From Collodictyon triciliatum (taxonomy: Eukaryota), in contig JBHJMP010000296.1 in NCBI GenBank assembly GCA_043381765.1, positions 1 through 40,299 of the forward strand: a DNA stretch of 40,299 bases, in the 5' to 3' direction. How positions within the stretch are numbered: the first letter of the stretch is position 1; every line of letters starts with the position of its first letter. The notes under the pieces are model-generated. The model did not search any database and was not told the DNA's origin. It saw only the letters and a program-made list of their open reading frames with translations. Positions 3,017 to 40,299 of this stretch are shown here, piece after piece. The translations under genes and the position numbers were made by a program.

Positions 3017-3078
3017 TTCTCTTTTTTCTATTTGAGTTTGGATTTCTATTTGAATCTCAATATAAACATCGACCTCAG

Positions 3079-9297: not shown

Positions 9298-9325
9298 TAT
9301 CGCAGCATCAACCAGGACGACAGAA
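9298..9325 (+). promoter_or_regulatory. Candidate bipartite upstream element TATCGCAGC-N6-CAGGACGACAGAA (copy 2)
   Basis: Matches 7486-7514; lies upstream of the gene starting at 9886. Confidence 0.4.
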
Positions 9326-14622: not shown

Positions 14623-17600
14623 ATGGCAACGAAGACGCAACAGACGCCTGAAGAAATCGCCGCTGCAGCCCGGGCGAAGATGCTTCAGCAGGAGGCAGCG
14701 CTGCCTATTGACATTCACTACAACAAGTTTCTGGGTGCGCTCATTATTCTCTTTCAGTCATTTATCACTATGATTCTTTTTCGTTTTCTTTTTCATTCGT
14801 TCTTATTGCATATTCGAAGATTTCATCCTAAGTATGAAAGAGAATATACTGCCGGTTCATTGGCCTCAAAATCCGATGAATATTGTGCTGTACTTCCAGA
14901 GTTAATTTTAATATATCCCATCACAAAATTAAATATCATGAATCCCTTAGACTGGCTGGTGGATCGGAAAAGGATACCAGAGACATGGAAGAAGCTATTG
15001 GACCATGTTATTTTTTCAATTTTTCGAACTTTCTTTTGTATATTTTCTTATCTTATGATATCGAGTTTCCATTTTAGAATGCACACCTTAAAAAAAAATA
15101 ATCTATTTATATTATTTAACGATTAATCCATTATAAAGTCTCATTAATGCTGGCTAAAAATGATAAAGTACCGATCTTACGCTTGACCGAGTTATAATTT
15201 TACCATCATATTACTTAATAATACTTACTCACGTGTTTAGGTGAATGAATTGGTTAAGGCTGCCTTGGCAGAGACTCCAGAATATCAGAATGTTCATATC
15301 CCCAAACAAATGTAAAAGAAAAGCTTTCAAATAATTTCATTCTTGACTCGACGTTCAGAAAAAAATCACGAAACTTGAGAAAAAGCGTGAATTCTTATTT
15401 AAACCCACACAAACCCTTCCGGATGACCCTGTCATAGCACCCAAAAGTTTGAAATATTTCTTGACAACACCCAACAAATCGATTACTTTTATGCTGTCTA
15501 CATAAGAGACTTGCTTAAGCTATCCGAGGGTCAGAAAAAAGACTTCTTTGGGCGCTACTCTTCAAAAAGGATGAAAGACTGGGACGATATTGTACGTGCA
15601 TACGAAGCGAGCGATATTTACCTTGGAGAAACAGCTCAATATCTTGTTCAACAAGTCAATTATGAAATGTAATCGAATACTGTGATTTTATTTTATAATA
15701 ATTTTCACATCGCAAACGTGTCTTGCATTATATATTAATAGCGTTTCTATTTTATTGCACAATTCAACGACCGACACCAGCCCTGCCTTGAAGAAGTCCA
15801 TTCAAAGACACACAGTAAAAAACATAGAACAACACAAACATAAAAATCAATCAATACATAAGTCTGATTTGATAATTTCATTACTTTTGCTACAAAAATA
15901 TATATTTAGCCTTGCTACTTTAGGTGACGATCAACGAAGTAGAAAAGAAAATTGCAGAGTCCAATCGTGCAATCCACGACCTGCAGAACTCTTATGAAAA
16001 AGGATGCAAGAAACTGAAAATTCAAGTCAGTGTGACAGTCCGAATTTACTTTATACTCCATATGAAAAATATACAAATTGATTTAATATTCAACAGTAAA
16101 AGGACATTTCTATATTTTATACATTACCATAACTATTTTTTACGATTTGTATGAAACATCGGAGCTTTTCTCTAATTAACAGGGAAAAGATTTGGTCTCG
16201 GAGATATCAGCACTTGCAAACGAACTCCCTGATATTTTTGAAAGGGTTCGATTACACTTACATAAGAAATATATCACACTTTCTTTACAAAAAAAGAACT
16301 CGACATATTAGATAAAAAAATATTTATTATAATCCATCTACTCGTCATCTTTCAATATTCTAGATTGTTGAAATAGTCCAGAACGACCGGAACTTTGTTG
16401 AAGGAATAGAATACTATCAGCAATTTTCTCAATATATCAGTTTATCTGTAAGCTTACTTCAAAGGGTGGAATTATATAGCTAATCTTTTATCAAATGTTT
16501 AAGCTTTAAATTATTTACTCTACATTTTTATTCTGCACTATATACACATGCCCGCTTCTGAATAAAGAATGAGCTTGCTCATAAAGGTAATTACCTCCAC
16601 ACTCTCACTCTTTTCTTAACTTTAAACTTTTTTAAAATAAAATAAAAACAGAAAATCGATATATAACTCTGAAAGAATGGCTCATTGCCATTTTATTTGT
16701 ATTTTACACAACAAGGACATGATTTTTAATTTGGAATTAGAGAAAACGCTCCATTTTACGAAATACTTAAGCACAAATGGAAACACACCGATGACACGCT
16801 ATTATCAGCTACCCGATTTCAAAGAGGAGACCAGCGGCATCCAGATCGAATCGTCCGACAGGTTTAGCTTCCATTCCAATAATTTTATTGAAATAGTTTA
16901 TGTTTGTCTTGCAACGCAATTAAATGATATGTTGGAATAAATATTCTGCGAGAATTATCAACCTGCATCCTGCTTTCGGATTATCAACCATAATCCTGTG
17001 CGTATATCTGTAGCAATGAGGCATCTTCCGTCGTAATAGACTGGAATATTGATTTGGTTGGTTGAATTTATACTAGTTTCTCTCTGGCTATTTCTCCATC
17101 AAACTTCATATGAGAGATTTAAATTTTTTTTTTTTAAAAAAAGGAAACACAATGTGTGTCTCTTGTATTGGAGGAAAGATTGAGATGACAAAAAAAATAA
17201 ATAAAAATGGACGGATTCAAAAAAAAAATAAAAATAAAAAGAAGTAATAAACCACATGCCCAACTTTGCAGGATACCACTGAACCATCAGTGCCATCTGG
17301 TCCAGTCGAAACCAGCGAAATCAATTGGGACTTTGATGCAGTTCACGTTTCACCCAATCTAGGTGTCCAGATAATCGGAGGTTTGCCAATTACTCTTTTC
17401 TCTCATTTCTCAATCATGTGGTCCATTTCTTTCTCATTACTTGGACATATATCTCACCATCATGGGTGCTGTTTGCTCACTGAATTTTAAATTACCGAAA
17501 TCAAGAATCTAGCGAAGATGACTCATGTCAAGTCATCAATTGGGATATATCAGATGCGACCGATGACGGTGGAAATGCAGGGGCTTCAATTGATTGGGAT

Positions 17601-19133
17601 GTGGTACGCTTCTTATTTTTTTGATTGATTATTATGATTATTTTTATTCTTGGGAAATGAAATAAAGCCCTCTTAAAAAAACTACTCAAGGTTTCATACA
17701 TAAAAAAAAGAAAAAAAGGAAAGTGACTTATAAGCGATTCTATACAGATAACATCCCTTTTTTTTTTTTCTATTCATGGCCACGGCGTAAAGGACATATA
17801 CTACGTTTGTTTTATTAGATTGTTCATTCTAACGAGATTCATCCACCCAGGATGTTACCAATCCAACAGAATTGGTGGGAAATGATGGCAGCAGCGTAAT
17901 TTTGATTAGCACGCAAACATGCAATTTTAATTTAATCCTGCAAGAAGTGTTGTCCTTGATGTCCGATTCATCTATCCACGTCCTTTTATGTCATAGACGC
18001 ATCCCATGAAAACGAAAAGTCAACCATTTTTACAATCCAGGTTATATCTGCCACAGAAAGCAGGGCTTCATCCAACATCACCGCAACAAAGGAAACAGTT
18101 TTAGGTCACTTGAAAACCCTAAATTCTGCTATTTCTCTCTCTCTCTCTCTCGTATGCTATAATTCCCCACACTGACTTTGCATATATTACTTTCCATGAG
18201 CTGATTTCATGGTTGCTTTCTTTATCTTGGACCGGAGCGAGTTTGCGTGAAAATGATTTCTACATATTTTTTTCCCTTTATTCGATTCAAAGATAATGAT
18301 TTCTATATATATATTTAATGTCACACAGAACACAGCAAAACAAGAAATGCGTTCCTAAACGAGCTTTTGGAGGTTTCTTTCATCCTTCCAAATAAAAATC
18401 ATAACAGATAGTAATAAAATCGTATTGTAGAAAACCCCACTAAAAGTAAAAATGAAGAAAAAAACCTATGTGATGCAACAATCACCCGATTTTACACGAG
18501 CCGACCACCGATTTTCTAAACAGACCCAAAATCGAATCAGTTGGAGGGATTTCTGAAGCACCGACGCGAGGAGCTCGACATCACAGACCACGTAGATATT
18601 GTCCATCAGGTCGACTATGACATCTCATCACATCGCATCACATCGCATCACATCACATCACATCACATCACATCACATCACATCACATCACATCACATCA
18701 CATCACATCACATCACATCACACTGACACACTGACACACTGACACACTTTTTTTCTTTCACCGCAGCTATTCGACGCCCCGCATCTCGTCCAGACGCAGA
18801 GCAAAGAGGTTGTTGCCAAATATCTCCAGTCTGTGGAGACACTCATCGACCTGGTCAACGGCAACAGAACCCGCCAACTGATGCTCATCAAAGGCTCGAA
18901 AAAGTCTATCACTTTTTTTTTTCATTTACTGCTCATTATCTTTATGATAAAAAAGATGAAAATGAATAAAAAAATTTTTTGTATTTCTTTTCCAGGTACG
19001 TATCCCGCCTGTGCTTCGGCCTGCAGCAGAAGGTTGACCACGCGAGGCGACTGGAGCAGTTAATTCCCGTGCTGGAAAAGAAAAGGAAGGATGCCGGCGA
19101 AGGAATTCAACAGTACGCAACGACAAACACACA

Positions 19134-19582: not shown

Positions 19583-20145
19583 TCAGTTGCCGGCACTCTG
19601 CTTTCTGCCGGACGCACCGGGCCATTCCTTGACAATGACGGGGTACTCGAGTTTGGGGACCTGCGTGATCTTTGGAGTCCCGTGCGCAACATACGGCTTC
19701 AGCTGCGGAGGAGGCAGTTTGTGTTTCGTGAGACTCTGCGTGGCTTTGCTCATTCGCCTTCTGGCAAAAGCGACGCCATGCTGGTTGGTTGTTGCTGGTG
19801 CGGGAAGGCGTGTTTTATGTGTTTTGTGTGTTTTGTGTGTGTGATCACTCACCTCGCAGGTCGTCAGGTCTGGGATATTGAGGTTCGGGATGCGGTTCTT
19901 ATCGATGTAGTAGCCGCCTGATTGTGAAAGAGCGTAAGCGCTGAAAATAAAATAAATAAGAATATAAGTGTAATTAAATAAGATGAATGGGTGCCTCTGC
20001 GTGTGTTCCAGCCGAGCGAGCCAGTACGCGAGCCTTTGTAGTAGAGGCGATCACCGTCCTTTGCAGACAGATTCCCCCACAATGCCGCTTTGCGCACTTT
20101 GCCGCCGGCTCGCTCAAGTCCTCGCAGAACTCCAAACAAACTCAT
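19583..20145 (-). CDS. MRPL41: Mitochondrial ribosomal protein mL41
   Basis: Exons 20145-19995, 19917-19853, 19702-19583 give ..LSAKDGDRLYYKGSRTGSLGWNTRRG-GYYIDKNRIPNLNIPDLTTCE-LKPYVAHGTP.., the mL41 YYKG..G..T..GGY...PDL....LKPYV signature, with a basic N-terminal presequence-like start. Confidence 0.9.
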
Positions 20146-22362: not shown

Positions 22363-23445
22363 GTCTCCTGAATATTCAAGTTTTGACATGACGCCTTCTC
22401 AATTATTCATCGTTTAAAGATATTTTTTTCTCTCCTTGTACCCCACAATGTTTTGTGGCGTGATTTTTGATATCTTGTTTGGTGTGAATCCCCAATAAAT
22501 AATAACCTTTTGTGAATCCCAAGTTGCGTTTTCTTTTGCGAGTATGCCCTATTCACCGGTTCATAATTTTATTATTACTTCTTTTTTTTTTTAAAAAAAA
22601 AATAAGCATTCAATTCTCTCTATTATGTAACAATAGTTGTATGTATTAAAAAAAAATAAGAGTTATACAAGGCAAATTGCGTAGGGTGCTTTTTTTTAAT
22701 CCATCATATGGTTTTTCAATGCTCTTCTTTTTTCTTCCTTTTGAAATTGCCACACTCCCTTTTTCTATCGACACATTATATCATCCACAGAGAAAAGAGA
22801 ACCAATTCTGTCAATTTCCATTACTGAAGTGATGAACACACCTTCTGGAGCAACACTTATTGCCTTGACCTCGCATCGCATGGAACAACTCCTTACATGC
22901 TTCCGGACTTGCCCATGACATCGTCCCTCCCCCAGAGAACTGTCACGTGCGACTCGTCCTTGTGCAGGACAAGCATGACAGGTTATTGATGAAAAGAGGC
23001 GTATTCTTCTGCAATCGATGAGAGAGACAAGCACACAAGTCCACGTGCAAGTCCGGGGATCATGATCCATAGCACTCTGCGCTGTTCAGCAACTGATACA
23101 TAGAGGAAAGCTGAGCCTTTCTTTGTTCGTCGTGTATTTGAGTGCTGTTTGGTGTGGACGATTCGCTCTTGTCTGGCTTTCTGTCGTTTCGGGTGTCTGA
23201 GTGAGTTGAGCGGCCAACATGTGATAGATCATCTTTTTGCCCACAGTGATACTTTCCATTCTGTGTTATGAGGCAGAGCTCATGCTTGGCGAAGGTGTTC
23301 TCTTTGTTGTTTGGCTTATCTGTTCGTTTCTTATGCGGCACACAAACGAAGGAGAAACTGAAGGAAACATCATATAATCCTTAGATATGTGTATGGCTCA
23401 AGTTTGGGCTTCAGTGCATTTCAGACATTTCTTAAATCCATCGTC

Positions 23446-23547
<102 letters not shown>

Positions 23548-23629
23548 CTCATCTATTTACTTCATCGATCCATTTATTTATCTACTTATTTATCTACTTA
23601 TTTATTTGTTCATGAACTTTAGAACCAGG

Positions 23630-25493
23630 ATGTCGGAGCATCAAAAACAGCTGGACGAATTGAAGAAGCTGCCGATCGATTTCCGTTCGAAAGGCAAAAA
23701 GCAAGAATTAGAAAAGTGCACATTCTTTAGCATCAGCGGGAGGCATGTGCAGATGGCTCTGGTTGGCATTTTCGAGCTCAGCTGCTTGGTTATTCTCGAA
23801 CTTTACAACAACCTATTATCCCATTTACCGCCTGAAATATCAAAATTGAGTCGCCTAGAGTTATTGGATATTTCCCATAATCAGCTGGCGTTTTTGCCTC
23901 CTCAGATTAATAATCTAACTCGCCTTCGGATTCTCAATGTGAATAGCAATAAGCTTGTCACACTTCCTGTCGAAATATCAGGGCTAAAATGCCTCGAACT
24001 CATCGATGCATCCAGAAATATCATTATTCATTTACCACCCGAAATATCAGCCTTGGGGGCCCTTACACAACTGAATGTATCCAAGAACAGTCTTGGTACA
24101 TTGCCTCCTGAAATATCAGGATGTAGAAATCTCCATGTTTTTGATATTTCAATGAATCAATTCTCGTCCCTACCATCTTGCATATCAGGGCTTATATCTC
24201 TCAAAGGCTTTGATCTGTCTCAAAACCAACTATCGAACTTGCCGCCCGAGATATCAGGATTAACACAACTCGAAATACTATTGATCCAGTCAAACAAGAT
24301 TTCAATGTTACCACCTGAGATATCAGGACTAATTCAAGTTACCAAGCTTTGCATTTATGAAAATCGGGTATGTTTCATTCGGTTTTTTATCCTTTTTTTT
24401 TTTAAAAAAAAAAAAACGCGAATTTTTCACAGCCCATTGTTCTTAGAATTTGTAATATGACAGATTGAGGAGCTCCCTTTGCAAATCACAGCCCTTACAA
24501 ACTTATCAGAGTTTCAAATTGAAATGTTAAGGAAGCGCAGCATAAGGACAGCTCCTCGCGGAATCACAAATCTGCCTTGCTGGAGCAATAAAGAGAATGA
24601 ATACTTTGGAACAACAAGGAGCGTTGCAGAGGGAATTAATGGGCTCTGTCTCTATGATTATGTTGGTTTTCATTAAATGATACCATAAATCCAATAAGAT
24701 CTATTATCGCATCAACAAAAACGCCAACATCCCCACCATCATGCACAAAATTGAAAGACAGAATAAAAATATTTTTTCATCAATAAAAACATATCAAACC
24801 CTATAGAATGAGAACATGGTGGACACTTTGTGGATTCCAGAGGCAAATGAGATTGGCTTTCAAGGATTAAGTTTTTACAGAATGAGTCTCTTCGAATTGC
24901 CCAAACAATTGAAGCTTCTTACAAATATTACTAGTCTATGTCTCAGGAAAAATAATGCAAGTTCTTAGATGATATCAAAAGACTAATCTATTTTATCTAA
25001 AGATGTTATGTGTTATATTCGATATGAAAGACTACTAACTGAACCGCAGTTTATTGAATTTCCCGACGTATTGCTTTGCATGACCTTGATGGTGAATCTG
25101 GATATCTCCCACAACAAGGTTAATCTCCATACACTTCCTTTTGATTCATACGCATATCAATTTATTTATTTATTTAAAATTTGGATAATTTACATTAAAA
25201 ACAGTGCCACAAAACCTCAGATAACAGCTATTCCCAACGAAATTAACTGCCTGTCTAACCTTAAAGTATTAGACGTCACATATAACAGGGTATAATTACC
25301 TATAATTACCTTCAATATCCATCAACCCATATTGAAAAGTCTCATCATATCATAGGTCAGGCAATTGCCCTATTTCCATGCAACAGCCTCGACGAGAAAA
25401 AGAATTGTTCAAGCCCCGGAGAAAGGCTCTGCCAGGAAGGCCTCCCGATTTGAACTACAAAACTGGTCCATCCTAGATGATTTCTCAGACTAA
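23630..25493 (+). CDS. Leucine-rich repeat protein (23-aa LxxLxLxxNxLxxLPPEISG repeats)
   Basis: Exon 23630-24367 carries ~9 regular LRRs; further LRR exons at ~24464, 24807-24956, 25050-25118, 25221-25289; last exon 25356-25493. Confidence 0.85.
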
Positions 25494-26288: not shown

Positions 26289-29116
26289 TCAAGCACTTGC
26301 TCTGTTCAAAAAAACAAAGAGCGATTGATACAAATCCATCGTTGGTGCGTGATTGGTTCTATCCATTACAACCTTACAGTCTGATATGATGCATTTCATC
26401 TCTACAGAAGTCATGAACAGCCCAGAGTAAATTAACTAAATTCCCGATTGTAAGTGTTTCGGCATGTATTTTCTTATTTTTTTATAAAAATACATGTGCG
26501 TATATTAATTTGTTAACCTCTGCATAAATATCATTAAACATTAAGAGTTAAATTCCAAAACTTACGCAGTTACGTAAAATCGTTCCTATATCATAAAGGG
26601 TTTCGGTGGATAGATTCGGGGTCTTCAAAACCTTCGATGATTTTGCAATAATGTTGGTACTTTGAGTCGAGTGATTTTCAAAGCTTCAAAATAGAAAGAA
26701 ATGAAAGAAAAAATGAAAGAAAAAAATGAAAGAAAAAAACGAAAGAAAAAAACGAAAGAAAAAAACGAAAGAAAAAAACGAAAGAAAAAAACGAAAGAAA
26801 TAAAAGGGAAATAAAATAAAAGTTTGACCAGTGGTGATTGAGAAATATTTATGTAAAATGATAGCGATTATACTTTTTGAACTATGCAGACAATTCTTTT
26901 TATGCTTTCATCTCGGCTTTCTATCCCATTGGCGGTTGCAAAGTTGCTAGACAAGCTTATGGAAAGAACATATTTAATCTTTTGAATGCACTCAGAAAGC
27001 TATGATAGTTTTTGTATACTTAAAGAACAATGGCAAGACGACATCCAGATGTTGACTCGTAAGTGACTTTGAAATGAATGAATTGGACAAATCGACAATC
27101 TAAATACCAATATTTTCTCTTTTAGTGCATAGTCAGTTCTACAATACAAACAATTCCTACCTTAGCTGTGTGTCGGATGATACTCTGGAACAATCTTTCT
27201 GATGAGAGTATATTCGTAAGTGTGCGAATGTATAATTCAAGATATTGCGAGCTTGGCGACTCCAAAACAAAATAGTGTATAAATTCCTCAGTTCTAGCAA
27301 GAAAATGGGAGGATGTTATCGCTCCATGAATATCAGTGAATTGTGCCAACCAACCGATCAGTGAGATTCCTGCATGAAATGGTGCAAACTGTTCATTTAA
27401 AATCATAAAGTCAACTGAAAAGGTAAATTCTTATTACGCACAGCGATACTTGACGACCAAATTCTGAATTGAACGCACACAGAAAGAAATGAGAAGATGG
27501 TACCTTGAAGAGATAACGACAAAGGCCACATACTAATTTTATTTGTCAATCCCAACAATTTTATCAATTCTTCTGAGGGCGGGCGGATTATTTTCGCAGA
27601 CGAAAAGTGGGTATTTTGTAGTATCCACAGTTCGTCTTGTGTAAGTTGTGACTCCGACTGTTGGAATTTTATCATTTATGTTAAAATCGCAGGAAAATAT
27701 ACAATGAAACGGTTTAAAGAAAACTCTAAATATATCGTACTGGAATGTTTTCATTTGCTTCGACGATCAAACTTATGTCTTTATCCAAGTGAATTCGAGT
27801 GTCTATTCGCGGTGCAAAAGTGGTCTAAAAATATACTCTCGTTAACATGGATACATTCATTCGCTTACAAGAGACTTTTTACGAGAAAATGATATACCGT
27901 TCGCTTCGGAACCAGACGATGCATTGTAAACCGTGTGACCATATGTTTCTGGAGTATACATTACATACAAGAAAATGGAGATATTAACACTTTCATTTTT
28001 TTGAAACAAGCGCGATCAGTATAAATCTTATTCATTACCTGAGAGCATCCGCCTGTAGAGGCCGTAAAACCAACCCAGGCATAAGCCGGAGGTTGTCCAT
28101 TAAATTGAGTTGAGGACAAGACCATATCATCAGGGTCGTGCAAATCCAAAATTCGAGGCATATCAACTGCCACGCTTAATACTGGGGCTTGGTTTGAGTC
28201 GATGTAAATAGATAATTCATTATTCCAGTAAACAACAGATACATTATGCGGATTATTGTCCGCAAGCCTTGGAATATTTTCATGAACCTAATATAGTTTT
28301 TACCAACATTTACACAGATTTCTACACGGTTAGACATTTTTTGTATATGAATGGAGAAATACTAAAAAAACGATAAACAAAAGTAATTTACTATTTACGA
28401 TTACATTCGGAGAGGAAAATATATTGACAATTTGATGTATAAAATAAAATTGAGAAATTATATTTTATTGAAAATCGAGAAATTATATTTTATTGAAAAT
28501 CATACAATTCCCAATGATGCATAATGTTCGGCAGTATTAGAGTCCCTTCCTCTCGTATTTACTGATATGTGATTATCATTTGGGTCTTCATACTCTTCGC
28601 CCCAGTTACAAGAGTCAAATTCCACAGCCAAGCTTTAAAAAAATAATATTCAAATGTCTTGAGAAATCAAGCTTATTTTTCTGGTATTATAAAATTTAAG
28701 AATATGCGTGGATCACGTTTACCTATTTTTTATGCATCCGTATCCGAGCTGACTTCCTCTGTCTCCTATCTCTTTATCTCCGCTATTTTGTACTACAAAC
28801 GCCATTCCGTCCGCACCACCACTCATAATAAATGTAAATTCAGCTATAAATCCTTCACTCACATCAATTTTTTTCTTCCACCAAGCTGAACCAACCTTAT
28901 CAGAGAGTGCTTCTGTCAAAAGCAAAACATCTTCTTCATTTCTTGCAAGTATCTGTGTTGAGTAAGTGCAATTTTTTAGTAGTAATTCATAAGAAAGTCC
29001 TTCTTCAAAGTGAATTCCCTTCTATGAATAAATTTTGAGGTATACCCTTGCAAATCCATTTACAGACCACATTGGTTCCATTATAAGCCTGCTTGAAGAT
29101 GCCTCTATAATAGAAT
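26289..29116 (-). CDS. L-type (legume-like) lectin domain plus unassigned C-terminal region; 3' part of the giant gene, or a separate gene
   Basis: Spliced WSVNGFAR-..LLLTEALSDKVGSAWW..FTFIMSGGADGMAFVVQN..LGYG..-SLAVEFDSCNWGEEYEDPNDNHISV..-AWVGFTASTGG; further exons down to a TGA at 26289. Confidence 0.8.
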
Positions 29117-32100
29117 CTAACAAAAATCTGTCATTATTTAGGATTTAAACATACTAGTGATTTTATTGTCAAACGATTTGAGATCTCAATTATTTTTACA
29201 TGCATCTTGTCGCATAGGCTCTGGGATATACGCTTTGAAGGTACGTGTTTCCTTTAGCTCATTCAGTACTTGTGATGCTCCATTGAATTCTTTTGTAGCT
29301 AAATCTGCAATATCGTAAAAACTTGTACATCTTTTATACCAAAGGACCGCCTTATCATGATTTTTCTCGGCAAAAAAATTACTTTCATAAAACGTGCCCA
29401 TAAAAAGGGCAAATAAATGGCCTTGTCTAGTCGACAACTCCTCCAAGACATTCATCATCCCGACAAAATTTGATTCAGCCATTTTTGTAAGAAAATCCCT
29501 CGATTCCTCCTTGTAACAACATATTGCATTCAGGCATATATATTCTGCTTCATTTAGACTGGCTTTCTTGAAAATGTCCATATTATTTTGAATCAACCAT
29601 GTACTCTCCTCGTCACCCAATACAGCTGCTCGAAGATAATATTTGAACGCTTCATTATAATTTTGGGGTACACCTTCTCCAAAATAAAGTAGATCGCCCA
29701 TTCCTTTTGTTGCCTTTACATGATTCTGTTCTGCTGAGAGCTGAAACCAATAATGGCATTGGTCAAGGTCCATTTCTATATTAAGTCCCTTCTTTGCGCA
29801 TAACCCCATGATAAATTGAGCATGAGCATCACCATTCCCAGAGTAAATCACAATTTTTTCATATGATTCGGTGATTTCGATTTCGGCACCAATCCCATAG
29901 TAAAAAACTGCCGACTCGGTGTTAACTCCTGTTCCCCATCCGTTTTCATAGCAATCGGCCAGAGCTGGGATAGATATTGGAAACTTGTAACTTTCTCCGA
30001 TTTCGTAACCATACTGATTGATTCTAGTTTCTTTTTTCCTTTTTGAAAGACTTTTCAGTACTTTAAATGCCCTCTCCGAACCGCCTTGTGCGAGTTGTTT
30101 TAGACGTTCAAAGTGGTTTCTATCGTGTGGAGACGATACTATTTTCCAAAAAATGGACTGTTCTACACTTGGTTCAACGCTCCATCCATTCTCATAGCAT
30201 TCTGCAAGAACAGAGACCGCCATAGGATATTTAATTCTCTCCTGAATTTCATCATCATCCTCATCCTCTTCATCTCTAGATAATCTTGCAAATGCCATAT
30301 TACCTAGGATATCAAAAGCTTCTTTCGACCCTTGCTGTGCAAGTTGTTTTAATTTTACGAAATCTTCGGCCTTTCCAAACATTTTAGCAGCTTTTTTCGG
30401 GGTTTTTTCGACAGCCCATCCATTTTCATAACACTCAGCAATAATTGATATTGCTTGTTTGTATTTGTATGTCTCCCCAATAACCCTATCAAAAGAATCC
30501 AAAACATTTTTACAAACATCAGACATCTTTTTCAGTATAAAGAATGCATCTTTTGATCCTTTTTGTACGTATTGCCTGAGCTTTTCAAAATTTTCAGCAT
30601 AGCCATACCACTTGACTCCTTCTTGTAGATTGGCATCGACTCCCCATCCATTTTCATAGCACTCAGCGATATTATTTTGTATTTGAGGATACTTGTACCT
30701 TTCCTCTTTGTCTCCGCTGTCGTTCTCTACAAATTCTTTCATTTGAGCAACGCCCAGTAGCACTTTAAAGGCATCAACCGAGCCGTTTGTGGCATGATAC
30801 ATCAGCTTCGGAAAATTTTCTGCCTTTCCATTCCATTCCAGTGCCTCACATAAATCCTTCTCTACACCCCAACCATTTTCATAGCAATGTGCCACTACAG
30901 ACGATAATTGGGGATATTTTTCTGTCTCTCTGATTTTTTTACCATAAAGTATCTCATCAATTTTCATTTCCGCTAACGATTTGAGGGCTTTGAATGCCTC
31001 GTTAGAACCCTGCCTAGCCAGAAGCTCCAACTTTTCGAAATTTGAAGAAACTTTGAGGGACTGAATCCACCAAAAATGTGCTTCCCTACTATTTTTCTCT
31101 ACAGTCCATCCATTTTCGAAGCATTTAGCCACCATAGCTGCTTGGAACTCAGAATATTGTTCATTCTTACAGTATGAAATAAAATCTTCGTCAAAGGATG
31201 CTGCGCCTCTTGAAAAAAATATTCTCTTATTTGTGTCACTCAGTCCGACGACATTCTGTAAATAAATTCCTCCTCCCTCTAAAAATCTATGCTCAACTCT
31301 TTGACATATTATTTCATCTACTGGTTCATGAACAGGACTTGTCAACTCATCTGAACACCCAGTTTTGATGTATTTTCTTCCTGATATATATCTTACTTCT
31401 CCTTTTTTTCGGTATCGAAGATTACTCTCATATGTTAGATTTAAAATATGAATAGTCTTTCCAGCCCCGCTATAAGCTAGCCATGTTTCTTCATTTGCAC
31501 TTAGAAAACTGCAGATAACCCTGATATCGCTTTTTTGTTCAAAAATAGTCCTCATCAAGTACCCCGTTTCTGTATCCCAAATACAAATTTTTCCATCGTA
31601 TGCACCAGAAGCAATCCAATTTTCACCATTTGGTCCACAGACCTTGCACATGCTCTTGATAGAACTTTCGTGGCCTTCCAAAACCTTGACTTGAGTGCCT
31701 GAATATAGATTCCAGGCGTAGATTCTGCCATTATCACCCCCGGATACTAGTTGTATCACACCATCCGAATTTTTTACACAGCAAAGACTATTGATGCCAA
31801 AGCATTGCGTTTCAATCGTCTTGATTCTATTCCCAGCGTTAGGGTCCCATATGAGTATTTTATTATCATATCCTCCTGATGCCAGCCATATATCCCCGTC
31901 TGGTCCGTCGATTTGACACACGGAATAGATAGAGGCTGTATGTCCTTTAAGAATCCTGACGGCATCACCAGTTTCCATACTCCATATTATAATATTCTTA
32001 TCGACACCTCCCGAAGCTAGATAAATATCGCCATTTAGAGATTGAAAAAGTAAAAGACTTCTAACACCATCTAAATGTCCCTCCAGTGATTTTTCTTGGG

Positions 32101-35100
32101 TTTGGGCGGCTATATCCCATATTCGAATGATTTTATCATCACCTGCTGATATCAGTCGTTTTTTCCCGTTGGAATTAGAATAAAAGCACAATGCTCTGAC
32201 ATCATTCTGGTGACCCTTCAGTGTTTTGATAACTCTTCCAGTAAGTAAATCCCATAGTATAATAATCTTATCCGAACTCCCAGATGCTAACCAATTTTCT
32301 CCGTTTGGTCCCTCGATTATACATGCACAGTTTGTAAAGTGCATGTGCCCCTCAAGTTTGTTGCAAACAACACCAAGGTTTGCTCCATTCATATTGGATC
32401 CGTTAAGAATAATATCCCTTAATGCTGCATTTGAAAAGTTAACACCCCTCAAGTTGGCTCCAGTCAAGTCAGCACCATCCAAGATTGCATCTCTGAGGTA
32501 CGAATTAGGGATATTAACATTAGAAAGGTCCATCTTGCTGAAGGATACTTTCATGAAATTTAAAAGTTCGATGGCTTTAGATGCTGCTGAATCTTGGCTT
32601 TCAGCTTTTCTTGAAAGATAAACAATATCAAACAGACAAGAAATTATCTGGCTGTAATCTAGTTGCCTGGCCTCGGTGCCTAGGCTAGCACTTATGAATT
32701 CATGGACTTTTGTGAACTCAATCGGTTCTTTGTCGATCCCTAGCTCCTTATAATGATATGATAAAAACTCACATGCATTTAAAATACTAACGTGGTTCCA
32801 ACCTATTTTTTCTGAAAAGTGTTTTATTATATCGACCCAAAAGTCAATAGCCTCTTTGTGCTGTCTATTTTCCATGTATAGTTGATTCAGCTCCTCACAA
32901 CAATTCCAAATTGAAGGGTATGAAATAAATTTCTTGTCACTGAAAAAATGAATGAGCGATTTATACAGTTCTGCAAGAGATGCAACCTCGTTTTTCTGTT
33001 TCTTGAATTTGATCAAATTGATTAATTGTGAGGGTTCTTTGATAGACATCAGTGATTTTGTTGACCTTCGAATAAAAGAGGACTTTTGAAAATATTCTGT
33101 GACCTGGTCCAACCTTGAGAAATTAAAAAATATTAAAAAAGGGTTTCAGACACTTCAAATGAATAAAAAAAAATTGAATATAGTCTACAGAAAGATTATA
33201 TCTAAACAACCTTTTCAGTTCAAAATTAGTTCGGCCTATGTTTTCTAAGGACGATGCATAGTCTGCATGAAGCTCCCCAAGTGTCCTTTTTCGAGCTTCC
33301 AGAGTTTTAGTGTATGAATCTAACGCAACTCTATATCTATAGTATATTATTAGATATTAAAAATCATTGTGAGAATAGAGAGAAAGGTCTTTTAATTAAA
33401 GGTCAGTACTCCTTCATGTCATGGTTGATATCACCAATTAATTCGTGGCAAGATATCACAGCGGGATGATTATCTCCCAAAGTTTCAATAAAGATCGACA
33501 GTGATTCATGCAGTAGCGGAATAGACTCTAGTTTTCTAGTTTTTAAAGCCATATTATAAATCATATTTTACATTAATGAATTTTCGAATTAGATAGTATG
33601 ATTTGAGAACCTATTCTCAGCAATATACACCTTTGCGATGTATAAAATAGTGTGTCCTATTGAAGGGTGAGTATCGCCAAATGATTTTTGAAGTATAAAT
33701 TTTGCATTTTCATATTGCACTCTGGATTCCGCATATCTAAGTAAGCAATAAAAATTCATTTAATGTAGTGAGAAATTAGAGGACGCAAGTATTCATATAC
33801 AATCAATATTCCACTTTTGAATAGATCAACTACTCTTTTAAAATGTTACTTCTTTTCGGCCAAAAGGACGTGACCAATATTTTGAAACGATTGCGCCACT
33901 GACGGATGGTCATTTCCAACTTTTTTCAACCTGATTTCTCTTGCCAAGTAGTATTCTTCTTTCGCTTCATCATTCCTTCAATAATGTATTCATTTGAATC
34001 CTTTTGATTAGATATTTGGAAAGAATAATAGCTTTTGCGAATAAAAAAATGAAAGAAAAAAAAGTGAAGATCATATTATTTAAGGGACGTCATTCGAATT
34101 ACTGCATAGGGTCACCTTCCTTGAAGTAAATATATATCTCCGAAGCGGTCGTGAGATAAAGCTATTTCGAAACTGTTATCATCGTGATGTTTTCTTCGTA
34201 ATTCGTAAGACTTTTGATACTCCAACATAGCCTCGGTCAACCTATTGAAATAGAAATTAATCCAATATATATAATAATATGAACTCTATGCACTTACTTA
34301 TTTTCCTGTTGGTATATATATCCGATTTCTTCGTGAATCGCAGCAAGCGAGCTTACGTTTTCACAGGCATTTCTCTCGTTAATGTGCAAACATTTTCTGA
34401 AATAGTAAGCTGATTCCATCCAACTAGGATTTATGTAAATAAATAAATTATTATCCGTGTTTTTTTTTTGAAAAATTTAATTCGTGGTGAATCTTACTTT
34501 TGTATATTCTTGTATACTTTCCCGAGTGTCAGATAATCTTCAGACTTTGATTCTATCCATATTTACTAGACATTAGGGATTATTGCAAGGAAATAGTAAA
34601 TATTTAATTCATTTTTGTATAATAAACCTTCGGTTAGCTTTTTTCCGATTCTTTGGTTGATGTTCGATATGAGAAATGTATTTTCAAAACTCTCCAAAAA
34701 GAACTCGATTAGCATATCACCAACTCTTCTTACAGACTACATTTATTCCAACTATTAGTATAATATTATAATTAAAAACATCAAAATAGACTGACCTTTA
34801 CGAGACTGGAGTATACTGTTTTGCTATTCGCTACAGATTTTGAATCAATCATTCTCCAACAATAAAAGAACTCATACCGATAGCGCCCACCCAACATCAG
34901 CACTACAGCCTGCAAAAAATTTAAATTGATATAATTCGTAGGTGAAAAAAAATGCATAATTGAGTCAAACGTGCTCTTGTTTGAGATACTCCACTAGTAA
35001 TTCGAAACATTCTCCCTCAAGTAGTTGATGGCAAATTTCTGCTGCTAGTTCCTCATCTACATCAACAGCTTCTGAGTATTGGCTGAAGAGCCATTTTCCG

Positions 35101-38100
35101 TAGTTTTTTTTGACATCAGTTCGGTCTTGCAAATTCGAAAAGAAAAATGATTCGGCCGTCTCCATGAGAAGTTGGTGGAAATACATATATCTTTTGTTGA
35201 AAGAATAAGTATGCATTCTGAACGTCGCTTCAAATTAAATACATAATATGCCTCATTATTTTCTGATGAAGTATAACAACCTCCCGTTTCGCACGAAAAG
35301 TGACTCGATTAAGGTAAAAAAGAATGACTTCCTATAAAAATAAGAAAAATAAAAATAGAGTGAATAGGAGCTTTCGAAAACATTTTTTAAAGGCTTATAA
35401 TGCAATAAAAGGGCTTCTTACCACTCAGCAAGTTCAAATAAGTTTCCAACATGTATTTCAATATATTTATCAAGATCGTTCTCGCTCAAGCCGATACGTG
35501 AAACAAACAAGACTTTCATCGATATGTCCACTATAGGTGCACCTTTTTGTGGAAAATACAGACAAAATTAAGATAAATGATTACTGCTGAAATATTGGTC
35601 AAATGACTTACCCTTTTTGTTGAATTTGCTCTGCCAGCGTTTGATAATCAAAGAATAGAGCTCAATAGCTCCGTTCTTTGAAAGTAGACTGTTTAGTTCT
35701 TTGTCTAGTTTCTCATACACCCCAAAAACTCGTATTTCGTCCAAAACAATACGCAGATAGAGAGGATGGCCTGTAAATAAAATTATATAAAGCAGTATAT
35801 AATTCTTTGCTACTGATACATTTTACTATATTTTGGTTCATAAATCTATTGATATTGAATATAAACCTAGTATTCACCTGTATTTTCATGATTTAAAAGC
35901 AGCATTTGCATTTGCTCTTCACTTAGTGATTTGTCATATCGAAAGAGAAAGGAGGTAGCGCTTTCTTGGATCTCTTCGATGGTTAATTTTGTCACTGGAA
36001 TGGCATCTAGACCGTTTTCAACGGCATGCTGCATGAAAGTTTATCATGACCAGATATTTGGTATGATTTATTTTAATAGTATGAAATGTTTTTCGTATTA
36101 AGACATTCAACCTTGCATGATACATGAGCGTCAATCGTAGAGAATAATAAAGCGATGTTGAATGGTGTTCTTTTGGGCAACCAATTAAGCGTGTGGGGTA
36201 CAGGGTTTTCTTGTGAGGGTTTTATTTGATTCACAGCATCAATCAGGAAAATAAACTTCTTGCTCCTATTTTTTTAAAAATAATATTTTAAACTCAAATA
36301 CAGACTTTATACAATTAATTACCTAGAAATATGGTAACCTGTTTTTTTTCTTTTCTTTCAATAATTTGAATAGGCCATGAATTCCCTCTTTTTGGAAATC
36401 TAATGTATAATCATGATTTAATTTCTTCACTATTGCACCTGTAGTGGCGTATAATCCATATTTGAATATAAAAGTAAGTAAATTACCAGAAGATGTGTCA
36501 TATAAAAAAGAAACTAATTGGTCATCGGAGCTTGTAACCAGTCTCCAGAATCGAATTGAGATACTTTAATGATGTTTGAAATATTAAGTATCTTTTGAAA
36601 AACGAAAACAAAGATGCGAATCATTCATATTAATGTTTTGTGTCGTCTAATTTGGCAAGAGATGATTGGAAGGAAAAGAATATTCTTAAAATTATATTTT
36701 ATTCTAATTTTATGTCAAAATTAAATAAATAGGTACTTTACCTTTCCACATAATTGCTCAAATTGGTGCATCCCACAAAATGGAACATAATATTAAGCCC
36801 AGGAATTCCCATACAATCAAAGTCTTTAGCGATGGCAGCCAAAAGGGATGACTTGCCAATTCCCGACGAAGCTGCCAGGACAGTTGCTGTTGTGTCTTCT
36901 TCATTCAACTGAGACCATATCTTTCAAGAAAAATATCAATAATCTTATGGAGAAGTAACGACCAAATCTATAAAGAATATCTATAACATCTTTATTTCTT
37001 TTTGGTTTTTTGTTAGTTTTTGTTCAATTATTTATCTATTTTTACATTTCCATTGATTGTGGAAAGTAAATCTTTTCGACCACCAAACCCAGCCAGTCGA
37101 TGCATTTTGAATTGGTGATGAGCCTGGTCCTCTGTATCCATAACCTACAAGTTTAAAAGTCCTTTGAGATATAAATATTTAAATTAGGTTTCTTTATAAA
37201 AATTAATTACCTTAACTCCAGAAAAATCTCTGAGAAAAGCGTAAGTCAAGTGATGAACTATCATATCGGAGTACTCTTTTGGTCCTTTATAGGTAACATG
37301 CCCATATTGACCTCTAATCTTTTCCTTGAGATCATCCTGGCGTTGCTTCTGCCATGTATGAATAAATACGAGAAACTTTGTACTTTTGCTCTTGCCTCTT
37401 TTAATCCGAAAAAATACTAACGGCCTCTTCATTCTCAGCCAGGTACAGCTTTCTCTCTTCTTCTGTTTTTGCAGAAGCCTTGGCAAAATCTTCATCTCGG
37501 AAGTAAAAAAATACTCTACTGCAAGCAGGTTTCGGTATCAGAGCAGCATATTGTATCTGAGATACGAGAAAATTGAGTAAACATAGACATATTTCAGCTC
37601 AAATTTTTCAATTCATATACTTCATATTCTGTGACACTTAGCCCAGGCATTTCATCGATGAATGGAAATCGTTTGTTTGTCTCAGAACGCCATTCAATAT
37701 TAAATTCAGCCAATTTAGGCTGATGCCCATATTTTTGATCGTTTTGTTGGTCTTCAGTGATACTGGTCTCTGTCTTCGACTGGTCAGGTATCCATCCGTA
37801 TCTTGCACCCAAAGAACAAACAAAGTAAGGACATTTTCCAATAGAGTCTAAACACCGGATGACGACCTTTTAAAAAAATAAATGAGAAACAGTAAGGTGC
37901 AAAAATTTTATAGATTCACTTTTTTTTATCTTTTTCATACCCATCCTTCTCTGCTGTCTTTTGATGTCAACCCCCAGCGTAAGTCAATAAATACGAGTTC
38001 AAATCCCATTGATTTTGCCAGATTTTTTAATCTGTGAAATCATGTGTTAAATAAAAAAACCTTTAGATATGATAGGGATGAAAAATCAGGCCATCCACGC

Positions 38101-39472
38101 ATATTGTAAGGAGAAAGTGATAGAAATAGAGAAAGCAAAAATGGGGTTGACTCACTCTAGGGCTCCGTGTTGGAAAAATGTATCTCTTTCGTTCTGCATA
38201 TCGCGGAAAGTGGATGACAAGAAAACGCGTATTACATGTTCATCAAATATTATAAGGTCGAGAGCTTTCGGGGTCATATATCGTTGTGGTGCAGGCAGCC
38301 ATTTCTTGAATTTTTTATCTTTCAGCTCATGTTGCATCATGTTCATCTATCCATGTACACTATCAGTCATATAGGGTGGAATCAAACTTTCATATACTAA
38401 AATGAAATAAACCTTGTCTATTAAGATGCACGATCTAATTAAAATGACACTTCCTTGTTGCTCCAGTCCTAAGTCTTAAAATTTTGTTTTTCAATGAAAG
38501 ACAGTTAAGCTAAGAGTATCATATCAAAGAACATTCAGAATGCCATACGGTTGAGAAAAGGTTACACATTATTAGACTATTCACCTCCAAATGGAAAAGG
38601 AATTTTTATTTTTTCGAATAGAACTTTGGCGTCTTGGTATCGCTCTTCAGGTTCATTCTGTGCTTAATTATGTTTAGAATCATATAAATGTCTTGCTTAT
38701 GTGGTACATTGATTTTCCTTCAACTTATCGTTAACCACCTTGAATGGTACATCTTGGCCGACAGATTTCGCTATCAGGTACCATAGCACCAGATAAACAA
38801 TTTCTATAAAAAAAAATACAAGGTTTTTCATAAAAAAATGCTATATTTTGGGCAGGGAATATTCGAGGTTTTTGGGTTATTTTCTTACAAACCTTGGAAC
38901 CTGACATCTTGGAGGGATGTTCTTTGTATATCGATACTTTCATATTTCCTTTCAAGCCATTCTCTAATTTTGGTTTGGTTTTTGGAATTTGATGATTCTT
39001 GAGTGATGGCGCAGTCGCTGGAGTAAATTAAGAAAAATAATGGCATCGTTTAATTTCATCACAAAAACGAAAATAAAACAAAAAAATACAAATTAAAATG
39101 ACGTGAGATAAAATGCTTTACTAAAATAATCTTATGACAATAGACAAAAAATTTTTTAGAATGCCCGCTTACGAGAAGAGTCGAGTTTGATAATCCAGAA
39201 ATTTTTCGTCCAATACAATCTCCGCAAGTATAATGAGGAAGAATCCGTCCTCCATGTCCTTCTTCACATCTTTTGCTCTTAATTGAACTTTATCCAGGTG
39301 GTAGTTGACCCATTCGAGAAGCGCCTTATTAATGTTTAATATCTTCAGATGTGACAAATATGGTATTAGTAAGCTTTTTGGTGAATTATTTGCATAATTT
39401 TCTTTAAATAAGCAATCTATTGCGATACGAAACCTCTGATGTGCTCACAAGCTTTCTTGCTAGCAATGACAT
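26289..39472 (-). CDS. Giant multidomain STAND/NACHT-like NTPase: CH-DUF4062-P-loop-TPR-pentapeptide-WD40-Sel1-L-type lectin
   Basis: CH: LLEWVNYHL..KDVKKDMEDGFFLIILAE..LVLWYLI (39330-38740). DUF4062: RVFLSSTFRDMQNERD, DLRWG, CPYFVCSLGARYGWIP, SVTEYE (38231-37620). Walker A ASSGIGKS (36872-36849), Walker B FIFLIDAVNQ, LNWLP, GHPLYL. KLC-like TPRs FGDTHPS, LGDNHPA, LGELHAD. Then a 3.9 kb exon and lectin exons. Start, end and the lectin junction are inferred. Confidence 0.72.
26693..26800. repeat. (GAAAGAAAAAAAC)n 13-bp tandem repeat, intronic
   Basis: Directly visible. Confidence 0.9.
29186..33112 (-). CDS. Large exon: TPR tail, pentapeptide repeats, 7 WD40 repeats, Sel1-like repeats
   Basis: 1308-aa ORF preceded by an AG acceptor at 33115-33114. 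Contains LRDAILDGADLTGANLRGVNFSNAAL, LEGH/LKGH..LASG..D..I.IWD x7, CYENGW-type units x6 and canonical Sel1 (MGDLLYFGEGVPQNYNEAFKYYLRAA). Confidence 0.92.
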   Translation of the reverse strand: MDQVTEYFQKSSFIRRSTKSLMSIKEPSQLINLIKFKKQKNEVASLAELYKSLIHFFSDKKFISYPSIWNCCEELNQLYMENRQHKEAIDFWVDIIKHFSEKIGWNHVSILNACEFLSYHYKELGIDKEPIEFTKVHEFISASLGTEARQLDYSQIISCLFDIVYLSRKAESQDSAASKAIELLNFMKVSFSKMDLSNVNIPNSYLRDAILDGADLTGANLRGVNFSNAALRDIILNGSNMNGANLGVVCNKLEGHMHFTNCACIIEGPNGENWLASGSSDKIIILWDLLTGRVIKTLKGHQNDVRALCFYSNSNGKKRLISAGDDKIIRIWDIAAQTQEKSLEGHLDGVRSLLLFQSLNGDIYLASGGVDKNIIIWSMETGDAVRILKGHTASIYSVCQIDGPDGDIWLASGGYDNKILIWDPNAGNRIKTIETQCFGINSLCCVKNSDGVIQLVSGGDNGRIYAWNLYSGTQVKVLEGHESSIKSMCKVCGPNGENWIASGAYDGKICIWDTETGYLMRTIFEQKSDIRVICSFLSANEETWLAYSGAGKTIHILNLTYESNLRYRKKGEVRYISGRKYIKTGCSDELTSPVHEPVDEIICQRVEHRFLEGGGIYLQNVVGLSDTNKRIFFSRGAASFDEDFISYCKNEQYSEFQAAMVAKCFENGWTVEKNSREAHFWWIQSLKVSSNFEKLELLARQGSNEAFKALKSLAEMKIDEILYGKKIRETEKYPQLSSVVAHCYENGWGVEKDLCEALEWNGKAENFPKLMYHATNGSVDAFKVLLGVAQMKEFVENDSGDKEERYKYPQIQNNIAECYENGWGVDANLQEGVKWYGYAENFEKLRQYVQKGSKDAFFILKKMSDVCKNVLDSFDRVIGETYKYKQAISIIAECYENGWAVEKTPKKAAKMFGKAEDFVKLKQLAQQGSKEAFDILGNMAFARLSRDEEDEDDDEIQERIKYPMAVSVLAECYENGWSVEPSVEQSIFWKIVSSPHDRNHFERLKQLAQGGSERAFKVLKSLSKRKKETRINQYGYEIGESYKFPISIPALADCYENGWGTGVNTESAVFYYGIGAEIEITESYEKIVIYSGNGDAHAQFIMGLCAKKGLNIEMDLDQCHYWFQLSAEQNHVKATKGMGDLLYFGEGVPQNYNEAFKYYLRAAVLGDEESTWLIQNNMDIFKKASLNEAEYICLNAICCYKEESRDFLTKMAESNFVGMMNVLEELSTRQGHLFALFMGTFYESNFFAEKNHDKAVLWYKRCTSFYDIADLATKEFNGASQVLNELKETRTFKAYIPEPMRQDACKNN

Positions 39473-40195
39473 CCTCAAAGATCTGCAGCCGCTTTTTTGT
39501 TCAACCAGACTGCTCTATTTTCAAGAAAAAGAAATTAGTTGGAGCACCCGATGGAGCACATTATCTATTTTTTGCTGTTCATTCGGCAAAGAGAAGAGAA
39601 CTCAAGACTATGTTATTGATATTTCCTAAATCAATAATTAGATCGTTGATTCGTCATCCTTGTACGATGTTCGTAAACTTATTTGCTTTTTTTTCTTTTT
39701 GATGGTAACGAACGATAGGTAATATTTTCGATTATTCACCGTCGCACAAGAAAGTCAGAATCAGTATGATTTGACACTTTTAATTATTTTGAATTACTTT
39801 CTTGAACGAAGGTTTCAGGCACATAAAAAAAATTGAGATAAGTTGGAGTCTAACATATGGTATGTGGCTTTAGGCAATAATTGATATTCATCAATGGAAA
39901 AAAACAACTCTTACATCTGTTATATAAGATTCGAGAATTGTAATTTCTACTAAAATAAAAAAATAGAGCATTAATTATAGTGTATATAAAATGTAAAAAA
40001 AAAAAATATTCCATGGACTTTTGCGTTAATCAAAGGGAAATATATTCTGATGTTGGTTGTGTAAAAAAAAGTTCGCTTCTATGCTAGAGTCATGCCCACC
40101 TGTATCAGGATCAAGGCTTTTTGACTTTATAGCCCAATATTCGGCAGCCTTATAAAATCAATACCGGAAATGAATTCTCTTTATTCTCTCGGCAT

Positions 40196-40299
40196 TTCTT
40201 TTCTTTTTCTTTTTTCTTTTTTCTTTTTTCTTTTTTCTTTTTTCTTTTTTCTTTTTTCTTTTTTCTTTTTTCTTTTTTCTTTTTTCTTTTTTCTTTTTT
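40196..40299. repeat. (TTTTTTC)n microsatellite at window end
   Basis: Directly visible. Confidence 0.95.

Follow-up and report, generated by a model that had tools for sequence, protein, structure and literature searches.

A many-exon NIR-STAND gene of Collodictyon triciliatum stacking several repeat modules behind a CH domain

The DUF4062 domain was recognised as an NADase only in two preprints of 2026 (bioRxiv 10.64898/2026.09.04.749371; 10.64898/2026.05.01.722283), in one of which it was renamed NIR; the enzyme is described as TIR-like and as using a catalytic Glu. According to the preprints, NIR is found in NWD1, NWD2, TEP1, TTC41 and NPHP3, is prevalent in Amoebozoa, Choanoflagellata and Metazoa, and lies in eukaryotes mostly at the N-terminus of NLR-like proteins, which are numerous and of largely unknown function. 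The preprints also report that E108 of PsAvs2 and E1008 of TEP1 are needed for NIR activity, that human NWD1, NWD2 and NPHP3 are inactive as purified, and that the catalytic Glu is retained in almost all eukaryotic NIR domains, the isolated domains requiring oligomerisation (10.64898/2026.09.04.749371; 10.64898/2026.05.01.722283). Here, a gene of this kind is described from Collodictyon triciliatum, on the minus strand of contig JBHJMP010000296.1 (assembly GCA_043381765.1), of which positions 1 to 40,299 were analysed; this whole stretch of 40,299 nucleotides (nt) is called the window.

The locus is one very long, many-exon gene, and this gene is a variant inside the NIR-STAND (NWD1/TEP1-like) kind, not a new kind. 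The reading that we hold to be rather probable is that of a single nuclear gene encoding a NIR(DUF4062)-STAND protein of about 2,900 residues, from the family of animal NWD1, NWD2, TEP1 and NPHP3, in which ligand-driven oligomerisation is proposed to lead to NAD+ hydrolysis. Along the protein, a calponin-homology (CH) domain is followed by NIR, by a NACHT/NPHP3_N-type NTPase with a GHPLYL/winged-helix arm, by TPR_12 repeats, pentapeptide repeats, a seven-bladed WD40 propeller and an expanded Sel1-like array, behind which come most probably an L-type lectin and then a short tail. What the sequence shows is the modelled run of exons between CH and the Sel1 array, which domains these encode, and that the Walker A, Walker B and catalytic-Glu motifs are intact. 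The relatives P0123, P0134, P0131 and P0135 mentioned below are EukProt Trinity transcript open reading frames (ORFs). The features of the locus are as follows.

27122..39472, minus strand: whole gene model, 38 exons, 37 GT-AG introns, coding sequence of 8,730 nt, 2,909 residues
39434-39472, minus strand: exon E01, a 13-codon start exon preceding the CH exons
38751..39342 (39173-39342, 38893-39017, 38751-38803), minus strand: CH domain, E02-E04 (Pfam and tblastn)
38413..38657, minus strand: two linker exons between CH and DUF4062, E05 (38585-38657) and E06 (38413-38468), read from the sequence
37621..38346, minus strand: DUF4062/NIR (TIR-like NADase) domain, E07-E09, about residues 205-360 (Pfam, profile against a TEP1 chain, alignment)
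35878..36920, minus strand: P-loop STAND NTPase of NACHT/NPHP3_N type, E13-E17 (motifs and conservation in relatives)
34628..35770, minus strand: GHPLYL/winged-helix and helical arm, E18-E23 (collinear with P0123, P0134, P0135 and P0131)
32561..34552, minus strand: TPR_12-type array, E24, E25-E30 and the first 185 or so codons of E31 (Pfam and splice sites)
29270..33113, minus strand: giant exon E31, 3,844 nt, within one open frame of 1,319 codons (29189-33145)
about 32400-32560, minus strand: pentapeptide repeats (Pfam 6.4e-11, 42 bits, cut-off 20.2)
31403-32356, minus strand: seven WD40 blades (Pfam 2.4e-36, 123.1 bits, cut-off 27)
29270-31195, minus strand: Sel1-like array (Pfam 4.4e-31, 106.6 bits, cut-off 30.7)
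28039..29021 (28723-29021, 28506-28632, 28039-28287), minus strand: L-type (legume-like) lectin, E32-E34 (Pfam, PDB, coding score)
27122..27948 (27898-27948, 27741-27824, 27504-27657, 27122-27414), minus strand: tentative tail of about 190 residues, E35-E38 (ab initio only)

Gene structure and domain content

The locus was scanned against Pfam as 99 stop-to-stop minus-strand pieces, and 11 exons were scanned singly at E-values up to 10, so that the Pfam scores given for the window refer to single pieces or exons and not to the spliced protein. For the gene model, six TPR introns were read from the sequence and a small gene finder was trained on them, its output being amended by eye and against homologues: a first crude pass had skipped many short exons, and a second pass broke the locus after CH and cut up two exons, both of which were corrected. 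The resulting model, checked for GT/AG sites, frame and stops, starts with an ATG at 39472 and ends with a TAA at 27122-27124. A dense run of short open pieces between these positions surrounds the 1,319-codon frame, and the 37 introns, all GT-AG, measure 48-248 nt (median 89 nt). When codon usage was learned from the giant exon only, 36 of the 38 exons had their best score, among the three frames, in the frame chosen for the model; the exceptions are the 13-codon E01 and E35. A preliminary description of this DNA had proposed one collinear minus-strand chain from CH to L-type lectin; an open 38-exon model with the domains in that order could indeed be built, every motif that it listed was found on the minus strand with verified coordinates, and the seven WD40 blades were located. 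Its size of roughly 3000 residues is corrected to the 2,909 modelled, and its end from 26289 to 27122; the stretch 26628-26907 is microsatellite.

The relatives were obtained by two routes. An exhaustive HMMER search with exon 9 only (82 residues) returned 11 proteins, the best match being P0123 (57% identity, starting at its residue 434), and a word-index search seeded with residues 150-1150 of P0123, of a type that sees fairly close relatives only, returned 12 proteins. The named matches are mollusc NWD1 proteins, at 20-25% identity. One candidate, P0127, was dropped as a probable low-complexity false match, having no tblastn match and odd Pfam rows. Residues 18-1868 of the spliced model align with residues 187-2032 of P0123 at 42.9% identity over 1,878 columns, in one high-scoring segment pair (HSP) of 1,531 bits, residues 20-1770 with residues 127-1872 of P0134 at 37% identity, residues 606-1740 with P0135 and residues 186-1155 with P0131, the latter two collinearly as well. 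These alignments validate the series of exons between CH and the propeller, and because the sequences aligned are transcript ORFs, CH to WD40 lies on one mRNA in relatives. The tripartite layout of effector, NTPase and repeat sensor is found on one polypeptide in the model, collinear with the transcript ORFs.

At the N-terminal end, the CH exon finds a tblastn match in two of the four EukProt relatives, namely P0123 187-237 (43% identity, E-value 1.2e-9) and P0134 127-175 (45%, 7e-9). In Pfam, the N-terminal 520 residues of P0123 score for both CH (45.7 bits, 8.5e-12) and DUF4062 (43.5 bits), and the N-terminal part of P0134 scores weakly for CH (19.9 bits) and at 43.8 bits for DUF4062. The two linker exons between these domains have no Pfam match at E-values up to 10; they are homologous to P0123 at about 300-347 (tblastn HSP 317-403 on 38481-38155) and fall inside the single HSP between model and P0123. 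The DUF4062 exon frame opens with an ATG right after an in-frame TAG, and this TAG supplies the acceptor AG for a phase-0 intron of 66 nt, the phase-0 donor of E06 pairing with the acceptor tAG/ATG at 38347/38346. All introns between CH and DUF4062 measure 66-116 nt and are phase-compatible. Because of the homologous linker exons, the TAG that belongs to an acceptor and these short introns, the CH domain is counted, judging from the sequences compared, in the same gene as DUF4062, in agreement with what the preliminary description had supposed.

For the NIR domain, DUF4062 (PF13271) passes its Pfam cut-off of 24.7 bits on piece 37597-37869 (29.4 bits, E-value 9.1e-7), and a second piece reaches 20.3 bits (6e-4). 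The minus strand carries IRVFLSSTFRDM at 38212-38244, DLRWG in exon 37941-38031, and RYGW (within GARYGW) together with SVTEYE in exon 37621-37866; SVTEYE, at 37621-37638, holds the putative catalytic Glu and is intact. A profile of 75 positions and five rows (A2), the first row being window exon 9, had as its sole match in PDB the TEP1 NADase-domain chain 11gz_A (E-value 1.8e-5), with svteye aligned to SVTEME. All five rows have the second Glu; which Glu of TEP1 is E1008 depends on our reading of the chain numbering, and the window carries both. A close relative, P0129, matches the same chain at 3e-18.

In the NTPase, Walker A (AASSGIGKSS, 36846-36875) and Walker B (FLIDAVNQ, 36226-36249), both on the minus strand, as well as WLP and GHPLYL, are conserved columns in the alignment with eight relatives and two mollusc NWD1 proteins; GHPLYL, at 35754-35770 on the same strand, stands in a block aligned with the relatives. 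Relatives that are 36-42% identical over the NTPase region reach 29.3-30.7 bits for NPHP3_N (P0131 29.3, P0128 30.7), above the cut-off of 24.8. Among the stop-to-stop pieces, the one with the P-loop gave a weak Pfam match only, and the Walker B, GHPLYL and helical exons, taken singly, gave none at E-values up to 10. Through Pfam DUF4062, the NPHP3_N scores of the relatives and the conserved motifs, the earlier assignment to NLR-like STAND NTPases of the DUF4062/NWD1/TEP1/NPHP3 kind is borne out. Behind the arm, TPR_12 is matched on four exon pieces (8e-5 to 9e-3), the relatives score for TPR_12 and TPR_NPHP3, and a further profile (A1) matches kinesin-light-chain TPRs. E25-E30 (33211-34423) are six consecutive exons of exactly 126 nt, each corresponding to one 42-residue TPR unit and separated by phase-2 introns, which is the pattern that would be expected of tandem exon duplication.

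The pentapeptide repeats, the WD40 propeller and the Sel1-like repeats share one uninterrupted frame, so that splicing is not required to join them. The Sel1-like array consists of six units of 76-82 residues marked by [CF][YF]ENGW, then of more Sel1-like repeats. When the giant exon was compared with proteins of 2,310-5,000 residues, two partial matches only were obtained, neither being a relative of the whole; the 124 matches among near-length proteins were all confined to the WD40/pentapeptide or to the Sel1 part, and the 592 pattern matches in metagenome loci yielded no confirmed case.

Lectin exons, proposed action and competing explanations

Behind the giant exon, the lectin families PF18483 (1e-13, 52.1 bits, on 28722-29021) and PF00139 (1.2e-4, 20-22 bits, on 28503-28634) are matched, each exon holding a partial domain, and a PDB chain annotated as legume lectin (7elv_E) is matched at 2.3e-9; the third lectin exon alone found nothing relevant in PDB. 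The loop LAVEFDSCNWGEEYEDPNDNHISVN (VEFD...N...DP...H) matches positions 119-152 of PF00139 and contains the Glu/Asp, Asn, Asp and His that we take to be the metal-binding loop residues of an L-type lectin. E32 is clearly coding (+28.6 bits in frame, compared with -38.8 and -61.5 in the other frames). The tail that would follow was modelled from two long same-strand open frames (27406-27675 and 27125-27430) and splice-site geometry. Its weakest exon, E35, may be skipped, E34 being then joined directly to E36 over a 214-nt intron. No family was found for the tail in Pfam at E-values up to 10, a single match at 0.036 being at chance level, and the last exon gave in Atlas weak ARM/helical leads only, with a recognition under Atlas's own bar.

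One freshwater-metagenome contig (run X1, 451 nt, 28050-28524) overlaps this region and appears to be a diverged allele, strain or paralogue. Lectin exon E34 shows five substitutions, four of which affect the first or second position of a codon, and the adjoining intron shows seven, along with one inserted nucleotide and a deletion of 25 nt. The indels thus lie in the predicted intron only; the deletion is the loss of one copy of a 25-nt tandem repeat at 28446-28501.

Regarding the action of the protein, the proposed mechanism is built on analogy with Avs and NLR proteins and on the NIR preprints, the parts list and the integrity of the motifs being what the locus itself contributes. The C-terminal repeat and lectin modules would keep the protein autoinhibited until a ligand is bound; the STAND module would then oligomerise in an NTP-dependent manner and cluster the N-terminal NIR domains, whose NAD+ hydrolase would thereby be switched on, so that depletion of cellular NAD+ would bring about a defence or death response. 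The CH domain, which is conserved in relatives, might couple the protein or determine its location. The tethering to the cytoskeleton that the preliminary description had suggested is conceivable; not every single CH domain binds to the cytoskeleton. A ligand, NADase activity and an immune role are thus what we infer for this protein, and the surveillance receptor suggested by the preliminary description would become a receptor with a built-in NAD+-hydrolysing output, now that DUF4062 is regarded as an effector with NADase function. A more specific version, which we put forward tentatively and as rather doubtful, is that of a NIR-NADase receptor with a composite sensor including an integrated L-type lectin whose metal loop is intact, in which cytosolic glycan recognition would be coupled to an NADase death switch, the CH domain would position the protein, and the family would diversify by swapping or expanding its C-terminal modules. 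P0123 and P0134 end in one Sel1 unit, P0135 ends differently, and the window gene ends in a Sel1 array with lectin; on this speculative and perhaps improbable view, such ends would resemble the integrated domains of plant NLR proteins.

Several points weigh against the reading of a single NIR-STAND gene that reaches as far as the lectin and acts through NAD+. All splice sites are predicted from DNA. The N-terminus of the model may be incomplete, the relatives carrying 126-186 residues ahead of CH; upstream of the model ATG, the window holds 827 nt only. In the window, the single CH exon (PF00307, 22.3 bits, E-value 1.5e-4, cut-off 26), the NTPase exons alone (NACHT, 14.3 bits, cut-off 26.7) and both lectin families (cut-offs 78.3 for PF18483 and 26.3 for PF00139) remain below the Pfam cut-offs, and exon 9 alone gave a chance-level match in PDB, TEP1 not being found. 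The lectin and the tail had no match in the relatives in any search, the join to the lectin comes from geometry alone, E35 scores better out of frame and E36-E38 are slightly negative in frame. Finally, a conserved Glu proves neither activity nor an immune role.

Among the alternatives, the same single gene might encode a non-immune scaffold comparable to animal NWD1 or NPHP3, serving as a ciliary, metabolic or other assembly platform, with a silent or regulatory NIR and with the repeats as docking surfaces. The nearest named relatives are NWD1 proteins, at the 20-25% identity given above, the gene is located among housekeeping genes, and Nwd1 has reportedly been tied to purinosome formation in one study. 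Nevertheless, all three motifs (catalytic Glu, Walker A and Walker B) are intact, and the C-terminal ends differ among family members, a pattern more usual in conflict systems. In addition, there is the retention of the Glu in nearly every eukaryotic NIR domain and the requirement of isolated domains for oligomerisation, both reported in the preprints (10.64898/2026.09.04.749371; 10.64898/2026.05.01.722283). A scaffold is therefore regarded as rather unlikely.

It is also unlikely, in our view, that two genes are present, the NIR-STAND gene ending at the giant-exon stop (29186-29188, about 2,518 residues) and the lectin and tail forming a separate small gene, or else an alternatively spliced or decaying appendage. 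The giant exon does own an in-frame stop, the lectin exon begins 165 nt past it, and this spacer contains an ATG with a GTAAAT donor behind it, so that a small lectin gene of its own might in principle start at this ATG and reach the lectin exon over a 42-nt phase-0 intron; moreover, P0123 and P0134 end shortly past the propeller, and the lectin occurs in none of the relatives found. However, a 3' end, a promoter and a 5' untranslated region would have to share about 100 nt of the spacer, none of the 37 modelled introns is as short as 42 nt, and the separate protein would be an L-type lectin lacking a leader. E32 begins exactly at the start of the lectin domain, with no usable ATG before the fold. 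Furthermore, a phase-matched pair links the two parts: the phase-0 donor CAA/GT (29270/29269), 81 nt before the giant-exon stop, fits the phase-0 acceptor tAG/AAG (29022/29021) over a 248-nt intron. An alternative route from the giant exon to the lectin passes through a 32-nt micro-exon. The splice to the lectin and the tail are parts of the model that we infer, and fusion of the lectin to the NIR-STAND protein is considered quite likely.

That the CH exons belong to a separate upstream gene, the NTPase gene starting at ATG 38346, is very improbable: NIR is usually N-terminal in eukaryotes, the DUF4062 frame begins with an ATG directly behind an in-frame TAG and the first trained gene-finder pass split the locus there, but two linker exons homologous to P0123 (about 300-347) stand between CH and this ATG, the intervening introns are short (66-116 nt) and phase-compatible, and the spliced model crosses the junction in a single HSP with P0123 and with P0134, in both of which CH comes before DUF4062.

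With the single-gene reading preferred, this locus forms a subfamily together with the relatives known from transcripts: CH stands ahead of NIR and a stacked TPR/pentapeptide/WD40/Sel1 sensor stands behind the NTPase, a layout that is extended in the window gene by a long Sel1 array and probably by a lectin. If the lectin belongs to the protein, glycans would be a concrete ligand class for an orphan receptor; if it does not, the gene would still be a well-documented member of a family under study. Variable C-terminal ends would be evidence of conflict-type diversification beyond animals, plants and fungi. Both the ligand class and the turnover of C-terminal modules depend on the predicted lectin splice.

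Surroundings of the gene

The window is eukaryotic nuclear DNA of about 35% G+C, with many microsatellites and short introns; 200 N lie within its first 3 kb. Neighbouring open frames matching ordinary eukaryotic genes are the following.

5061-5750, plus strand: Sec23/24 beta-sandwich
8520-8963, plus strand: ribosomal protein L13 of organellar type
14581-15123 and 18743-19060, plus strand: CDK5RAP3, in two exon pieces
19586-20050, minus strand: mitochondrial ribosomal protein L27 (weak match)
23378-24457, plus strand: LRR protein

No obvious cluster of similar genes surrounds the STAND gene within the window. Positions 8001-12000 have a G+C content of 0.45-0.49, compared with about 0.35 elsewhere; here the L13-like frame is accompanied by several long open frames that overlap one another on both strands. 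Many microsatellites rich in T/A, with periods of 4-15, occur, at 1-83, 1643-1839, 2723-3018, 7229-7382, 13954-14149, 23449-23607, 26693-26804 and 40195-40299, the last two of these positions being purine-rich or T-rich arrays that flank the gene on both sides.

In freshwater metagenomes from two studies, contigs without any difference were found over 151-271 nt at 27119-27389, 37140-37331, 39334-39484 and other positions. Since the predicted exon-intron borders run through them, these contigs are genomic DNA, and they indicate that the same or a near-identical organism was present, at low depth, in those samples. In the four freshwater-metagenome DNA runs examined at the locus, contig pieces of 31-493 nt cross exon-intron borders and are uninformative on splicing. 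Two apparent joints in such contigs had sides of 20-21 letters and were disregarded.

Comparison with known systems

The closest counterparts are P0123 (2,619 residues) and P0134 (2,401 residues), which, like the window gene, encode CH, DUF4062/NIR, NTPase, GHPLYL arm, TPR_12, pentapeptide repeats, WD40 and one Sel1-like unit. Each ends in a unit whose homologue in the window is the first Sel1-like unit (42% and 34% identity, respectively), and Pfam recognises Sel1 on these ends (1.1e-5 and 1.4e-3). They have more WD40 repeats than the window (14 matched WD40 stretches in P0123), stop after the single Sel1-like unit, carry 126-186 extra N-terminal residues, and have no lectin or tail that could be found. 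Because both share the CH-DUF4062 front and the Sel1-like end, the window gene is not alone in the order that runs from CH as far as the first Sel1 unit, and the earlier statement that no protein with the whole order is known is not supported for that part. According to the sequences compared, TPR, pentapeptide, WD40 and Sel1 are already together behind CH-NIR-NTPase in the transcripts of relatives, and what appears particular to the window gene within these searches is the set of six [CF][YF]ENGW units with further Sel1-like repeats, the lectin and the tail.

Among the other relatives, P0131 (2,314 residues) has a different N-terminus of 186 residues and about 1,170 residues behind the TPRs almost without Pfam match, and P0135 (1,849 residues) starts inside the NTPase and has a different end after the propeller. 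The last 80 residues of P0135 gave nothing in Pfam, although PF06701 figures in its precomputed list, and this different end is thus a lead only. Altogether, the C-terminal ends of P0123, P0134, P0135, P0131 and the window gene look variable.

The animal proteins NWD1, NWD2, TEP1, NPHP3 and TTC41 share with the window protein a DUF4062/NIR next to a NACHT-type NTPase, followed by a helical arm and by repeats of the WD40 or TPR type, together with the motifs SSTF.DM, DLRWG, RYG, SVTE.E, WLP and PLYL. They differ from it by their low identity (20-25%), by having one repeat type, and by being without CH, pentapeptide, Sel1 and lectin. In TEP1, unlike in the window, NIR is internal, behind TROVE and vWA, according to the preprints (10.64898/2026.09.04.749371; 10.64898/2026.05.01.722283).

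The sensor modules also have parallels outside this family. A pentapeptide-then-WD40 cassette behind a NACHT NTPase is common: at least 17 of the 120 matches listed have NACHT and pentapeptide Pfam matches beside WD40, including actinobacterial TIR-domain and Mortierellomycota proteins. Such bacterial and Mortierellomycota proteins (P0003, P0018 and the TIR-domain P0040 and P0068) have the cassette as in the window, some with a TIR effector in front; their similarity to the window is in the WD40/pentapeptide part only (27-35% identity over 20-30% of the giant exon), their NTPase is of another subfamily, and CH, DUF4062, TPR_12, Sel1 and lectin are absent. As in the window, a Sel1 array is the C-terminal module of a STAND NTPase in P0093 (nSTAND1 with 15 Sel1) and P0143 (DUF4062, WD40 and Sel1), which are only 21-24% identical to it and are without the 76-82-residue double unit, CH and lectin. 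In the literature, an architecture joining NACHT/STAND and calponin homology was not found by title or abstract, nor was the pentapeptide-WD40-Sel1 order found described behind NACHT.

Finally, bacterial NIR-effector proteins (PsAvs2 and those of the Vulcan, Vesta and Swarozyc systems) are described in the preprints as having an N-terminal NIR NADase, a central STAND NTPase and a C-terminal repeat sensor, as in the window. They are prokaryotic and much smaller, with a single sensor module and known phage triggers, and are likened to the window protein here by description only. The catalytic Glu is reported to be required for defence by these NIR-effector proteins, which are taken as the working model for the window protein.

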